From Holosporales bacterium (GTDB lineage Bacteria > Pseudomonadota > Alphaproteobacteria > RUG11792), in contig JAIRZU010000005.1 of the NCBI GenBank assembly GCA_031267075.1, positions 17,399 to 81,398 of the forward strand: 64,000 nucleotides of DNA, in the 5' to 3' direction. Shown here in pieces: positions 14,166 through 32,095 of the stretch. Every line of letters starts with the position of its first letter. Position 1 is the stretch's first letter. The translations under genes were made by a program, and so were the position numbers. The notes below the pieces were generated by a model. The model searched no databases and had not been told where the DNA came from. It was given only the letters and a program-made list of their open reading frames with translations.

Positions 14166-15422
14166 ATGAATAACGAGTACGTTTTTGCACATCTCACTGT
14201 AATCGTGTTGGTTGCGGCTCTATCTGGTCTGTTTCTGGCTAGGTTGAAGCAACCCGTGATGGTAGGGTATATCCTGGCTGGGATAACATTTGGGCCAAGC
14301 GGCCTTGGTTTTATCTCGTCACAAGTCCAGATCCAGTTTTACTCAGAACTGGGAATCCTACTGCTATTGTTCGTGATTGGGCTTGAACTCAACATCGGAT
14401 CATTCATTAAGATGTGGAAGATTCCGACGCTGTTCACAGTGATACAGGTCGTCGCCAACACTGTGATTGCAGTACTAGTTTCGGTGATATTCGACTTCCC
14501 AATCTTCGTCACACTCCTCGTGGCATTCATTACATCCCTCTCGTCGACGGCAGCGATAGTTAAGGTCCTTGAGTACATAGGCGAGTTTAGAACTGATGTC
14601 GGCCACATTACAATTGGAATTCTGGTGGCGCAGGATATCGCCATCGTCCCCATGATGCTGATCATTAAGAAATGCGGAGCAATCAACAGCTCTGTGATTA
14701 TCAATCTCATACTCGCCATCGTCCTTGTTGTGCTGCTGATAAAATACCTTGGAAGAAAGGACAAGATCGCACTCCCCACAAAACACCTGTTGCAGCACCC
14801 TGAGCTCACACCAGTTATAACATTAGCATTCTGCTTTACGGCTTCAGCGATAGTTGTGTTGCTTGGGCTTTCTGAAGCATATGGAGCATTCCTAGCTGGG
14901 CTGTTCATAGGAAATATGCAGGAGAGGCAGAGCATCCTCAACAGCATAAAGCCGATTCAGAATGTGCTACTCATGGCGTTCTTCCTGTCGGTTGGCCTAA
15001 TGTTCGATCTGAGATTTCTGATTGATAATTGGTTGAGTGTGACGCTGACATTGATAGCAGTCACTACCTGGAAGGTTATCTTCAACACTGCGACTGTGAG
15101 GTTCTTCGCAATCGAGCTAACCAAGGCGGCATCAATAGGAATAATCCTAGCACAGCTCGGAGAGTTCTCATTGATACTAGCCAACGTCGCCACTCAATCC
15201 CAGATCATCGATGAATTCGGGCAGAAGATGATAGTGTGCATAACGGCACTATCGCTCTCGATGAGTCCAGTCTTCATTGCACTCGCAACAAGAACCAAGG
15301 ACCTCTCATTCATCGGAGATAACTCCCCCGTCTCTCTTTGCAAGATACTGTTCTCTAGGAACTTCGCGAAGACCGTCAGGGCACTTTCGTTGAAATACAG
15401 AAAAATGGAAACAAAGGTATAG
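14166..15422 (+). CDS. Cation:proton antiporter, CPA2 (Kef-like) membrane domain
   Basis: 418-aa polytopic ORF. KQPVMVGYILAGITFGPSGLGFI is typical of the Na_H_exchanger family. Confidence 0.75.
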   Translation: MNNEYVFAHLTVIVLVAALSGLFLARLKQPVMVGYILAGITFGPSGLGFISSQVQIQFYSELGILLLLFVIGLELNIGSFIKMWKIPTLFTVIQVVANTVIAVLVSVIFDFPIFVTLLVAFITSLSSTAAIVKVLEYIGEFRTDVGHITIGILVAQDIAIVPMMLIIKKCGAINSSVIINLILAIVLVVLLIKYLGRKDKIALPTKHLLQHPELTPVITLAFCFTASAIVVLLGLSEAYGAFLAGLFIGNMQERQSILNSIKPIQNVLLMAFFLSVGLMFDLRFLIDNWLSVTLTLIAVTTWKVIFNTATVRFFAIELTKAASIGIILAQLGEFSLILANVATQSQIIDEFGQKMIVCITALSLSMSPVFIALATRTKDLSFIGDNSPVSLCKILFSRNFAKTVRALSLKYRKMETKV

Positions 15423-16094
15423 ATGACAATCTGTGAGTGCACACTGATCCTAAGCGGGTTCCTGTTCTGCATCGGACTGCTTGGGTTGTTGAGGCAGCCA
15501 AGCATCGTGAAGGTTATCATATCGATAGAAATCATGATCTTCGCAGGCATCATTAACTTCGCTGTTACGACCGGTGATTTCCCTATCAGGTCTGGACACT
15601 TCGCAATCCTAATCGCAGTCGTTCTAGGCGGACTTGCCATTGGCGTAATCTTTACAATCTGCAACTCGCAAACAAGGGAAAATAAGGATATAAATCTCCT
15701 GGATGAAGATGACAGACTTCCTTTGAAACCTTCAGAATCAGAACTTACTGGAGTAGCAATGGAGAGGCCATTAGACATAGGTGAGAGCACCGGATTGACG
15801 CAGCAAGCTGATTATGGATCATCATCCAAACCTCCAGAATCAGGATTATTGCTAGAAGACACGGAGCGCAGAAGCGGAGTGTACATAGAGGTACATGAGC
15901 ATTCGAGCACCGGATCGACGCCGCAAGAAACTGATTATGGATTACAATTCAAACCTTCAGAATCAGGATTATTGCTAGAAGACACGGAGCGCAGAAGCGG
16001 AGTGTACATAGAGGTACATGAGCATTCGAGCACCGGATCGACGCAGCAAGAAACTGATTATGGAGTGTTTGGGAGGGAGTCTAATGACGGGTAA
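15423..16094 (+). CDS. MrpC/MnhC (NuoK-like) antiporter subunit with a C-terminal tail built from three palindromic-element copies
   Basis: The N-terminal ~95 aa has 3 TM helices and looks NuoK/MrpC-like. The remainder is PSESxLL..DTERRSGVYIEVHEHSSTGSTxQETDYG repeats. Confidence 0.6.
   Translation: MTICECTLILSGFLFCIGLLGLLRQPSIVKVIISIEIMIFAGIINFAVTTGDFPIRSGHFAILIAVVLGGLAIGVIFTICNSQTRENKDINLLDEDDRLPLKPSESELTGVAMERPLDIGESTGLTQQADYGSSSKPPESGLLLEDTERRSGVYIEVHEHSSTGSTPQETDYGLQFKPSESGLLLEDTERRSGVYIEVHEHSSTGSTQQETDYGVFGRESNDG
15729..16066. repeat. Tandem array of 3 palindromic-element copies (one shortened, two with the exact 113-bp core)
   Basis: Cores at 15831-15943 and 15954-16066. Degenerate copy at 15729-15818. 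123-bp phasing keeps the frame. Confidence 0.85.
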
Positions 16095-17901
16095 TGAATT
16101 AAAGGTATTATCCCTACTAATGCTGTTCGTTTCTGGAGGGTGCGGAGCTGCCTTCAGTATGTTTAGGACGGCGAAGTACGGAGCCATCATTTCGTGTATC
16201 GCGCTTGTAGCATCGGTGATGCTTGATGGTGGAGCGGCCATCAGCTTCCAATGGTTTTCAATCAACAAAATGCACCTCGTGTTATCGTTCGGCTTCGGCA
16301 GCACCGAGACTATCATTAGCTCGATCATCACCGCTATCCTCTGCTGCCTGTATTTCGCTAGGAAGATAGAATGCATCGATAAGGCGGTAAACGCGAAATT
16401 CGGAGCTCTAAACATATTCGTAGGCTGCATGTGCGTTGCAGTATTTTCCCAGAATCTCTTCCAGTTCTATGTTGCAGTAGAGGCTATGGGAATCCTGTCC
16501 GCCGTAATTGTAGGCCTGGAAAAGGGAGCAGCTACCAATGCATCAAGAGTCTTTGCCTTCAATAAGTTCGCAAGCCTGCTGTTCTTGATATCCCTCATCA
16601 TAATCGCACTCAGTGCTAAGAGCCTGGAGTTCGTGGATATCCAGAAATTATATTCTGGCAACTGCTCTGGCGGGCTATTCTGGGCATCTGCACTTTTGGT
16701 TGTTTCATGCCTATGCAAGGGAGCACAGGTTCCATTTTCATACTGGCTAATTGCCGCAGCCAAAGCAAACATCTTTGCATCGATACTGATTCACTCTGGA
16801 ACGATCGTTGGCCTAGGAATTATATTCATAACGAAGTGCCACTTCTTGTTTAGCCCGTTCCCGATCCTGCAGGAGGTGATGATTGTATCGGGTATCGTTA
16901 CTGCAATCCTAATGGCTGGCTACGCAACTGTCTACAACAACATAAAGGAAATCATGGCGTGCCTAACTGCATCATCAATCGGAAGCATGTTCGTTGCCTG
17001 TGGGCTAAGCATGCACACTATTGCCGTATTGGCATTCACCTGCCACGCTCTCTTCAAAGCCACTCTGTTCCTTGGGTTCGCGTACTTAATTGCTGCCACT
17101 GCCGGCGAGAAGAATATCCTCAAGATGGGAGGTCTTAAAAACGAGGCGTCAAAGCTGAGTGATATTATATGGATCACATTCATAATGGCGGTTGGCATTC
17201 CGCTTCTCCCTGGATTTTTCGCGAAGGTCCCATTCCTGGCATCGCTTCAACTTACTGAAATGCCGTTGTTAGTCATCGCTAATGTGGTAGCTAACATGTT
17301 CGCTACGATGGCGCTTTTTAGGATTATCGTGGTTGCGATGTACGGGAAATCGAGGATGGATGATCTCACATTATCGATGGTCTCAAACTCGAATGCATAT
17401 AACATGAAGCCGATATGGCTAGTGATTGCAATCTCGATATTCGGATCATTCGTAGCGTGGAGCTCATGTGTATCTGGGAAGCTTCATTTCGGAGAGGCCG
17501 GTGTAGCACGGGTGCGCGACGCCTTTGATTACTTCCTCGAAAATGTTGGTGAGGTATGCCAGATCGCTGCATCCATCATCATCGTTCTCCTGTTCATGCG
17601 CTTCTCCAGATCGAAGTACGTAGATGCGGTACTAGAAACCTTTATGAAGATACTGATGAGGAACAAATTTCACAAGCGCTTCTGCGGATTATGTACACTG
17701 ACAATGCTGAAGATCTTGAGGGGATTCGACGAAGCCAATGTCGCCATTGCAAACATCTTAAATGTGAGGAGCTATAGGGCTTTGAGGGGAGCAGGGATAG
17801 CGCTATCAAACGCCCACCGTAAATTACTGGCAGCTCAGGTTATCTGGATTATCCTTGGTCTCGCCCTCATCCTAGCCGCTGCGATTAGACCTCTCCCATA
17901 A
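16084..17901 (+). CDS. Mrp/Mnh-type antiporter large subunit (NuoL/MrpA/MrpD family)
   Basis: ~605-aa polytopic protein. The ATG overlaps the upstream stop. Proton-pumping-subunit-like helices (WLIAAAKANIFASILIHSGTIVG). Confidence 0.7.
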   Translation: MTGNELKVLSLLMLFVSGGCGAAFSMFRTAKYGAIISCIALVASVMLDGGAAISFQWFSINKMHLVLSFGFGSTETIISSIITAILCCLYFARKIECIDKAVNAKFGALNIFVGCMCVAVFSQNLFQFYVAVEAMGILSAVIVGLEKGAATNASRVFAFNKFASLLFLISLIIIALSAKSLEFVDIQKLYSGNCSGGLFWASALLVVSCLCKGAQVPFSYWLIAAAKANIFASILIHSGTIVGLGIIFITKCHFLFSPFPILQEVMIVSGIVTAILMAGYATVYNNIKEIMACLTASSIGSMFVACGLSMHTIAVLAFTCHALFKATLFLGFAYLIAATAGEKNILKMGGLKNEASKLSDIIWITFIMAVGIPLLPGFFAKVPFLASLQLTEMPLLVIANVVANMFATMALFRIIVVAMYGKSRMDDLTLSMVSNSNAYNMKPIWLVIAISIFGSFVAWSSCVSGKLHFGEAGVARVRDAFDYFLENVGEVCQIAASIIIVLLFMRFSRSKYVDAVLETFMKILMRNKFHKRFCGLCTLTMLKILRGFDEANVAIANILNVRSYRALRGAGIALSNAHRKLLAAQVIWIILGLALILAAAIRPLP

Positions 17902-31031: not shown

Positions 31032-32095
31032 TTGGCATCAAAAGTGCAGCCATCACATCCATCATAATCCTTGTCATTGCCGTCATCGTGAGAGCTGGGA
31101 TTTTCGTGTTGAGGGACTCTCCCAAGTTCGATGAGAAGGTGTACTCCGCTGTAGGCAACGGGTCAGTTCACGCATATTTCATCAACCTCGAACAATCGAA
31201 GGATCGCCTCACGAAGCTCCTACCAAAGCTGCAGAAACTTGGTATCGAATTCACCCGTATCCCCGGGGTATATGGAGCCGCTCTAAGTGATGATGAGAAG
31301 GAGGCAGTAGCCGATAGACGGACGTATATAAGGCTGATGCATAACCCCCTCGGCGATGGTACGATCGGCTGCTACCTCAGCCACATAAATGCCTGGAAAG
31401 CATTCCTAGAATCTGAGCACTCGTACGCAATGATCTTTGAAGACGATGTTGAGTTCGTTCCGGATTCCCTGAGACATGCGATAGATACCCTCGTTAAGAA
31501 CAGCCACCTCTGGGATATCATCACCTTCGACTATATACACTACGGCCACCCAAGGCAGCTCATCTCACTGCCCACTAACCCTCCAGAATCAGTTTCTTGC
31601 TTCGTCGATCCGGTGCTCGAATGCTCATGTACGTCTGTGTACACTCCGCTTCTGCGCTCCGTGTCTCCTAGCAATAATCCTGATTCTGGAGGTTTCAATT
31701 GTAATCCACAATCAGTCTGCCGTATCGATTCCGGGCTCCAATGCTCAGGCACCCCATTTCTTGGAAGGGTATGTCCCAACCCAATCTCCATTGTTAAATT
31801 CAGAACCCGAGTCGGGAACGCCGGCTGCTACTTGATTAACAGAAAGGCAGCCATCAAGCTACTCTCAAAAGCGCTTCCAATAATGATGCCAGTTGATCAC
31901 TACTTCGTTAGATCATGGGAATTCGGGTTACGCTTCGTCGGAGTCGCCCCTAAGCTGGTCAGTCAAGACTCCAGTGTGTCGATTAGGAAACAACAAGACC
32001 ACAAGGCAAGAGTGCCCATAAAATACAGAATCCTATCTGTGATCCATCAGGCACTTTCGCAAGCCGCCACCTGCATTTATGCCTATCTGGGGTAG
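31028..32095 (+). CDS. Glycosyltransferase family 25 (LOS/LPS biosynthesis type) carrying 1.5 in-frame palindromic-element copies; 3' end chimeric
   Basis: YFINLEQSKDRL...GTIGCYLSHINAWKAFL...YAMIFEDDVEF. Element at 31580-31755. The last ~16 codons lie in a 48-bp repeat shared with the tsaD remnant. Confidence 0.7.
   Translation: MIGIKSAAITSIIILVIAVIVRAGIFVLRDSPKFDEKVYSAVGNGSVHAYFINLEQSKDRLTKLLPKLQKLGIEFTRIPGVYGAALSDDEKEAVADRRTYIRLMHNPLGDGTIGCYLSHINAWKAFLESEHSYAMIFEDDVEFVPDSLRHAIDTLVKNSHLWDIITFDYIHYGHPRQLISLPTNPPESVSCFVDPVLECSCTSVYTPLLRSVSPSNNPDSGGFNCNPQSVCRIDSGLQCSGTPFLGRVCPNPISIVKFRTRVGNAGCYLINRKAAIKLLSKALPIMMPVDHYFVRSWEFGLRFVGVAPKLVSQDSSVSIRKQQDHKARVPIKYRILSVIHQALSQAATCIYAYLG
31580..31755. 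repeat. Palindromic element: one exact 113-bp core (31580-31692) plus a diverged left half (about 31704-31755)
   Basis: CCTCCAGAATCAG...CTGATTCTGGAGG, then ATCCACAATCAGTCTGCCGTATCGATTCCGGGCTCCAATGCTCAGG. Confidence 0.85.
32048..32095 (+). repeat. 48-bp direct repeat, copy A (45/48 identical to 33046-33093)
   Basis: CAGGCACTTTCGCAAGCCGCCACCTGCATTTATGCCTATCTGGGGTAG. Confidence 0.9.

Follow-up and report, generated by a model that had tools for sequence, protein, structure and literature searches.

We consider it likely, from sequence comparison, that a selfish palindromic element of the RPE-1 type inserted once and in frame into a NuoK-family gene of a Holosporales bacterium and was then amplified locally, giving the encoded membrane subunit a long C-terminal tail. 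The gene lies in a stretch of 64,000 nucleotides (the window, C36:17399-81398) of genome bin G000, which comprises 883 kb in 73 contigs with 49% G+C. The tail is encoded by an array of 369 nucleotides that is missing from all orthologues, that aligns with a repeat dispersed through the same genome, and that leaves the original stop codon and the original start of the next gene in place.

Results

The host gene encodes a NuoK-family subunit

The gene and its neighbours are arranged as follows:

14166-15422, + strand: upstream gene, CPA2-family cation/proton exchanger (PF00999, 179 bits; TIGR00932, 172 bits)
15423-16094, + strand: K-like gene of the NuoK family (subunit 4L, PF00420), taken from the ORF list; 223 aa with the element-derived tail
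15423-15713, + strand: ancestral core of the K-like gene, residues 1-97; three TM helices, a conserved TM2 glutamate (E36) and 66-74% identity to the same-genus orthologues
16084-17901, + strand: downstream gene, NuoL-like antiporter-type subunit (PF00361, 118.7 bits), 605 aa

The stop codon of the exchanger gene abuts the ATG of the K-like gene, which is open over its full length and ends with a TAA at 16092-16094. PF00420 matches residues 8-91 of the protein with 37.9 bits (Pfam gathering score, 26.1) and the same-genus orthologues are 99-101 aa long; the recognisable three-helix subunit stops near residue 95-97, much as the first-pass annotation had it. AlphaFold2, run on a ten-sequence alignment, predicted core helices at residues 3-24, 28-50 and 57-89 (pLDDT 61-80), and the GRAVY of the core is +1.05. 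E36 in TM2 and 22 further columns are invariant among the ten aligned sequences, and the TM3 glutamate of NuoK is replaced throughout the K-like group, as seen in the same alignment and by comparison with PDB structures. All nine homologues of the core (91-103 aa) carry PF00420, and three of the nine are named NuoK, from Holosporales MAGs. The 223-aa protein forms a singleton cluster that comes from the source contig only: none of the independent assemblies holds a 223-aa K-like protein, and a metagenome scan with the K core as the query returned no matches.

The subunit had been labelled MrpC/NuoK-like, and the MrpC part of this label did not survive. The closest solved chains to the core are NdhE and NuoK (6hum_E, E = 5e-7; 3rko_K, E = 1e-5), no Mrp chain was found among the PDB matches at E <= 0.1, and no MrpC family matched the K-like protein at E <= 0.01 in NCBIfam. 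The gene is not set in an mrpA-G operon either: its neighbours are the CPA2 exchanger and one L-like subunit. By these comparisons the K-like gene is nearer to NuoK/NdhE than to MrpC, and we dropped the MrpC identity. The resemblance to NuoK/NdhE extends to the three TM helices, a core of ~100 aa, the TM2 glutamate and an L-type gene next door. However, the K-like core lacks the TM3 glutamate, a nuo operon is missing (the genome has a single PF00361 gene), and scores stay below the specific cut-offs: all NuoK equivalog models of NCBIfam are far from theirs (best 34 bits, cut-offs 57-128), and the NuoL-like gene scores 178 bits with TIGR01974, under the cut-off of 407.

The order CPA2, K-like, L-like is kept in three same-genus genomes (G001-G003). 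The K-like gene is the only clear PF00420 gene of the bin (86% complete) and the L-like gene its only PF00361 gene. Within what the bin covers (86%), the K-like gene was not found to be part of a nuo set (L, M and N subunits), and a nuoD-like gene at C36:11792-12922 lies by itself, with unrelated genes around it. Given the scores, the group traits, the cluster order and the lone nuoD, we prefer "NuoK-family subunit of unidentified reduced module" as a safer name than "MrpC". The CPA2/NuoK-like/NuoL-like cluster (14166-17901) and the lone nuoD-like gene point to a reduced or unusual complex-I/antiporter module.

A K-like gene in decay, with an insertion that marks or caused its loss of function, would fit a genome with one PF00361 gene, a stand-alone nuoD-like gene and no canonical complex I or Mrp set evident. 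It would also fit the absence of the second conserved NuoK glutamate, that of TM3. Yet this glutamate is missing in all orthologues and its loss is therefore a family trait. The core has neither frameshifts nor stops, the window protein necessarily has all 23 invariant columns, E36 included, the L-like gene that follows is intact too, at 605 aa, and the frame has been kept open through 369 nt. We regard decay as very unlikely.

Same-genus orthologues lack the insert

The orthologous ORFs of the three same-genus genomes are 99, 99 and 101 aa long and none has an insert. They end in ...NLLDRGDDV* (G002), ...NLLDRGNDV* (G003) and ...NLLDKGRDNDG* (G001), and in all three genomes the ATG of the next gene lies 8 nt ahead of the K-like stop. 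When the flanks of the array in the window were joined without it, the product was a protein of 100 aa that ends in ...NLLDEDDNDG* and is collinear with its relatives. At the nucleotide level, G001 has aATGACGGaTGA as the counterpart of aATGACGGgTAA in the window. Codon 97 is GAC (Asp) and ends at 15713. The array thus sits three codons ahead of the original stop and one base ahead of the downstream ATG, next to two short features:

16071-16079, + strand: GGGAGGGAG, a Shine-Dalgarno-like stretch in the 3' arm of the element, 4-12 nt upstream of the next ATG
16083-16094, + strand: AAT GAC GGG TAA (N D G stop), the ancestral 3' end of the K-like gene; the counterpart in G001 is aATGACGGaTGA, with RDNDG* as the protein end

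The ATG of the NuoL-like gene at 16084 overlaps the stop codon of the K-like gene at 16092-16094 (ATGACGGGTAA, 16084-16094), as had been read from the sequence before. The N-terminus of the NuoL-like protein, MTGNELKVL..., aligns with MTDELGIL... (translated from the G001 sequence) and MMSDTLRLL... (G002). Together, the 3' ends of the G001-G003 genes and the joined flanks of the window show that the present stop and the ATG/stop overlap are ancestral. No stop codon is found in the ORF upstream of the array, in agreement with the first-pass annotation, which had proposed the comparison of orthologue lengths and stops; an ancestral stop upstream of the array was dropped as a candidate, since the stop that the relatives share is the present one, downstream.

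The proposal that the junction with the next cistron comes from the array must accordingly be narrowed. The overlap itself is shared with G001-G003; what the array contributes is just the 20-30 nt upstream of the NuoL-like ATG, GGGAGGGAG included. In the relatives, the position of GGGAGGGAG is taken by purine-rich sequence belonging to the 3' end of the K gene; in the window, GGGAGGGAG may act as the ribosome-binding site of the NuoL-like gene. The 3' end motif of the 16S rRNA (anti-Shine-Dalgarno) was not found in the genome assembly. In the predicted RNA fold, the arm with GGGAGGGAG pairs with the 5' arm of the array (15714-15729).

A single pair of outer arms bounds three core units

We dissected the array by alignment to a 145-nt consensus, which was built from 46 near-full copies aligned with their flanks:

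15714-16082, + strand: inserted array of 369 nt, 123 codons (residues 98-220), absent from all orthologues
15714-15818, + strand: copy 1, degenerate, 105 nt, with the 5' terminal arm at 15714-15741
15825-15941, + strand: copy 2, which spans consensus positions 11-127 at ~95% identity
15948-16083, + strand: copy 3, which spans consensus positions 10-145 at ~95% identity and includes the 3' terminal arm (16054-16083)

The array had first been delimited as 15729-16066 with a 113-bp core. The outer inverted arms make the element longer than that, and the array runs over 15714-16082/3. Residues 98-220 derive from the element; the word "entirely" does not extend to the last residues NDG and the stop, which are ancestral. 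Tandem Repeats Finder reports a repeat at 15785-16064 (period 123, 2.3 copies, 93% matches, score 490). The earlier 123-bp phasing holds from copy 2 to copy 3, but copy 1 and copy 2 are 102 nt apart in register, or 111 nt between aligned unit starts, both multiples of 3. Copy 1 has been shortened by many small indels with a net length that is also a multiple of 3, and the consensus alignment bears out that the tandem array keeps the frame. The alternative reading frames have 9 stops each across the array region (15714-16100). The array is no chance resemblance, because BLAST E-values between the copies range from 1e-40 to 1e-70 and ~60 matches lie elsewhere in the 883-kb genome.

The array contains only one 5' arm and one 3' arm. 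The predicted RNA fold pairs these two arms with each other and gives copies 2 and 3 hairpins of their own; the single pair of arms indicates one insertion, not three. Of 123 compared positions, 8 distinguish copy 2 from copy 3, and 5 of these lie in the spacer. Both carry GCTAGAAGAC (Gly to Glu), a variant that occurs in 2 of 38 copies genome-wide (the 36 others carry GCTAGGAGAC) and in no other element of the genome. This private variant argues that copies 2 and 3 arose by duplication on the spot, after the insertion. With the single arms and the private variant, we dropped a scheme of three independent insertions. Against a wholly in situ build-up, the spacer GGATTACAATTAAAACC recurs in arrays at unrelated loci, so some multimeric form may have inserted whole.

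The exact boundaries of the insertion are ambiguous, since ATGAC directly adjoins the array on both sides (15709-15713 and 16084-16088). These flanks could reflect coincidence, target duplication or target preference. As an alternative to the boundaries given above, a 5-bp ATGAC target duplication would imply an ancestor of 98 aa; 34 other full-length copies show no consistent target-site duplication beyond a possible terminal TA/CA.

An assembly artefact of a short-read metagenome bin might account for the copy number or for the entire three-copy layout. The bin is fragmented (73 contigs, 86% complete), several contigs end inside element copies (C3 and C44, for example), and the related bins are MEGAHIT k119 assemblies. 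However, the longest exact repeat in the array is 87 nt and no 90-mer of 15600-16200 is found elsewhere in the genome, so k-mers of ~90 or larger resolve the array. Copies 2 and 3 are distinguishable at 8 positions, and both flanks are unique sequence that is collinear with the orthologues. Moreover, a collapse of identical extra copies, which is possible, would make three copies a lower bound and not an overestimate. The chance that the layout is artefactual is slim.

The element is dispersed through the genome and resembles RPE-1

A census of the 883-kb genome found 97 pieces of the element at 76 loci; an independent search returned 57 matches. The other loci of the window are at ~586-745, 31555-31753, 39662-40099, 49740-49902, 54609-54762 and 61843-62004, with a fragment at 22004-22044. 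The outer arms of the consensus are inverted repeats (TAGACCTCTTTCAAAACCTTCAGAATCAG ... CTGATTGTGGAGGTTTTGGAGGAGGTCTA), and the consensus is predicted to fold end to end into a near-perfect hairpin (-72.4 kcal/mol as RNA, -33.1 kcal/mol as DNA). The arms covary among copies (CAGAC...GTCTG, for example). The consensus is open in one forward frame (RPLSKPSESELLLGDTERRSGVYKEVHEHSSTGSTQQETDCGGFGGGL) and two reverse frames, and the remaining three frames have stops.

The peptide of this forward frame passes TIGR01045, the NCBIfam model "palindromic element RPE1 domain", for which the cut-off is 30 bits: the tail scores 40.8 and the consensus peptide 35.5. The match spans positions 1-36 of the 48 in the profile. 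The element is therefore, on the strength of its peptide, a probable relative of Rickettsia palindromic element 1 (RPE-1). No Pfam model matched the element peptide, and Rfam gave no match for 15300-16400 at E <= 1.

The census comprises 44 element loci of at least 100 nt, more than half of which (24/44) are inside long ORFs, with at least 40 open codons on both sides of the element. The hydrophilic forward frame is used at 21 of these 24 loci and one reverse frame at the other 3 (binomial p = 6e-8 against one third). All three frames are open, and the acidic, hydrophilic forward frame accounts for 21 inserts, the Cys-rich reverse frame for 3 and the hydrophobic reverse frame for 0. This bias points to selection at the peptide level or to a preference in orientation.

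Host gene names were assigned by eye from conserved motifs; the Pfam and NCBIfam searches covered the genes around the K-like locus. We take the intragenic hosts to be core genes: dnaE, uvrC, rlmN, dapF (three inserts), dxr, tpiA, ung, cdsA, gltX, recF and birA. Further hosts are presumably miaA, prmC, recJ, lysS, era, a family-25 glycosyltransferase gene, a terminase gene and others. The dapF-like ORF (383 aa, C18:7963-9114) has three separate inserts, two in the forward frame and one in a reverse frame. Empty orthologous sites were found for four genes, the K-like gene among them. An esterase (61531-62319) has exactly 49 inserted residues that are absent in G001, G002 and G004, recF has no insert in G004, and the GT25 glycosyltransferase has none in G001-G003. 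At these other empty sites the orthologues are ~60% identical in amino acids and too diverged for base-exact boundaries.

Tandem arrays of the element, with periods of 123 or 105 nt, occur at ten loci at least. Unrelated arrays have the unit-to-unit spacer GGATTACAATTAAAACC in common, with the junction CTGATTGTGGA-TTACAATTA-AAACC. Those with the common junction lie at 39662-40099 (era) and 31577-31753 (GT25) in the window, and at C23:4061-4454, C54:7425-7746, C54:10859-11151, C2:2069-2281 and C73:20470-20692 in the bin. The rlmN and recJ arrays have the same internally deleted first unit. Multimeric forms of the element may spread as such, or a reproducible mechanism may make the junction.

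Some contigs end in or near element copies (C3:4332-4460, C44:5548-5642, C54:262-313 and C26:270-399). The element family is therefore probably behind part of the fragmentation of the bin.

These data bear on the possibility that the array persists because its RNA or DNA serves a function between the two cistrons, K and L, its translation being incidental. It could stabilise the mRNA, provide a processing site or gate translation of the L gene, as REP, BIME and ERIC elements do in operons. The predicted RNA fold of 15690-16110 (-120.7 kcal/mol) is more stable than that of shuffled controls (z = -4.4), its outer arms sequester GGGAGGGAG near the ATG of the L gene, and the array lies exactly at the cistron boundary; the frame is also still open despite the 9 stops in both other frames. 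But a stable fold and an open frame are inherent properties of the element. The element is also found in the middle of >20 unrelated housekeeping genes, where an intercistronic role is impossible, relatives of the same genus have the CPA2-K-L cluster without the array, and copy 1 is decaying. We therefore find an RNA- or DNA-level role to be a poor bet.

Discussion

Taken together, these results suggest the following history. An RPE-1-type palindromic element would have inserted once, directly after codon 97 (GAC) and ahead of the final three codons of the K-like gene. The forward frame of the element is open and the length of the insert is a multiple of three, so the ORF would still have reached its ancestral stop. 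The interior of the element would then have been amplified in situ, with copies 2 and 3 as a recent 123-nt tandem duplication, and copy 1 would have decayed through frame-preserving indels. Ribosomes would read through the array and produce a K subunit with an acidic, unstructured C-terminal extension of 123 aa, although three strong hairpins within the coding region could hinder its translation.

The C-terminal 126 residues (the insert and NDG) have a pI of 4.5, a GRAVY of -0.91 and 58% S/T/G/P/Q/E. AlphaFold2 gave no secondary structure past residue 90 (pLDDT 37-46), which hints that the tail may be disordered; the low pLDDT is partly an artefact because the tail is without aligned homologues. 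The C-terminus of NuoK faces the cytoplasm in the published topology. The extension is probably tolerated by the cell because the C-terminus of a K-type subunit is solvent-exposed. The 3' arm of the element would now supply the Shine-Dalgarno-like sequence of the NuoL-like gene, and ribosomes in the tail would unfold the hairpins and so keep translational coupling. Most likely, the tail is neutral or slightly deleterious selfish DNA and no adaptation. Annotators should not take the 223-aa protein for a novel two-domain K subunit.

The tail could alternatively have been co-opted, in either of two ways: the frame may have stayed open through the three hairpins because translation of the tail is by now needed to unfold the 3' arm and expose the ribosome-binding site of the NuoL-like gene, or the acidic stretch of 123 aa may be a functional cytoplasmic extension of K. 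If true, the element would have built a translational-coupling gate, or a new extension in an unusual CPA2-K-L antiporter module. We judge co-option unlikely. Insertion of a selfish element followed by local amplification remains our preferred reading.

Like RPE-1 (Ogata et al. 2000; TIGR01045), the element is a palindrome of ~145 nt that is dispersed through the genome and has inverted arms at its ends and a long hairpin; an ORF runs across it, and its in-frame inserts leave conserved housekeeping genes unbroken. RPE-1 occurs as many dispersed copies of ~100-150 bp, and here there are 97 pieces at 76 loci; in-frame insertion is seen at 24 loci in long ORFs and against empty orthologous sites of four genes. 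The host differs: RPE-1 is found in Rickettsia (and the related WPEs in Wolbachia), and our element in an uncultured Holosporales bacterium, a difference of taxonomic habit and not of structure. A second difference is the tandem arrays, at no fewer than ten loci here and with periods of 123 or 105 nt. The RPE literature that we examined makes no mention of tandem arrays, and the word "tandem" occurs 0 times in PMC3767692.

Several properties reported for Rickettsia RPEs bear on the tail. RPE-encoded segments map to solvent-exposed protein regions, and RPE inserts occur in mnhB, nuoN and dnaE (PMC3767692). A guanylate kinase that bears an RPE is translated and active, and the target-site duplication of RPEs is listed as "?" (PMC2229807). 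In-frame fusions of RPEs are unusually frequent among bacterial MITEs (PMC10969869). The closest parallels come from Rickettsia japonica (PMC3767692, Table 1), where RPE-4 in mnhB and RPE-6 in nuoN are also in-frame elements in membrane subunits of the Mrp/complex I antiporter superfamily. Those inserts belong to other RPE groups and are single, 84-90 nt long, internal and conserved among spotted-fever-group rickettsiae, whereas the triple array of the RPE-1 relative forms a C-terminal tail of 123 aa that is specific to one species of its genus. MITEs such as ERIC, Correia/NEMIS and RUP are likewise small and non-autonomous, with inverted ends, stable RNA hairpins and occasional in-frame fusions (PMC10969869, PMC2229807). 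However, they are mostly intergenic and have clear TA target duplications, whereas about half of the full-length copies here are intragenic and no target duplication is consistent.

The locus is thus a clear new example of the known RPE "protein-coding palindromes" and no new kind of system. Two minor particulars set it apart: the array lies where two cistrons overlap, and it grew by local duplication. It illustrates how a small membrane subunit can reach over twice its length through a selfish palindrome while both the subunit and the overlapping gene stay unbroken. With a sister genome as the guide, the empty site can be recovered with an uncertainty of a few bases, the ancestral stop and start are retained, and the private variant records the later local duplication. 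With this analysis, the range of RPE-1-type "protein-coding palindromes" grows from Rickettsiales to include a Holosporales lineage, and intragenic tandem amplification is added as a way for RPE-type elements to grow.

Relatives of the element in other genomes

We found no paper that links Holosporales with palindromic elements. Within the genus, element copies are rare and diverged (~80% identity): G001 has 0, G002 has 3 and G003 has 6. The element is absent from 17 further genomes of the family and class. In a search of one genome per species (185,579 species), peptide relatives were confirmed, among the matches listed, in at least three bins named "MAG: Holosporales bacterium". Bins Gx485_bin74, Gx481_bin186 and Gx481_bin27 are, among the matches listed, those with peptide relatives, which are partly in frame in long ORFs. 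These related bins come from termite-gut metagenomes; the Gx485 sample is the gut of a lower termite, Glyptotermes sp. (PMC11707648).

Two metagenome contigs, L036:1441-1660 (ERZ1292640, from a sample labelled "Hain-H43", 31.5% G+C) and L037:1441-1640 (OMEQ01000114.1), also carry the central core of the element. Judged by these matches, the core appears to be conserved far outside the host genus. Its sequence, GCGCAGAAxCGGAGTGTACATAGAAGTACATGAGxATTCGAGCA, is nearly unchanged across contigs of very different base composition, and in one case it lies in frame within an ORF of 675 aa.
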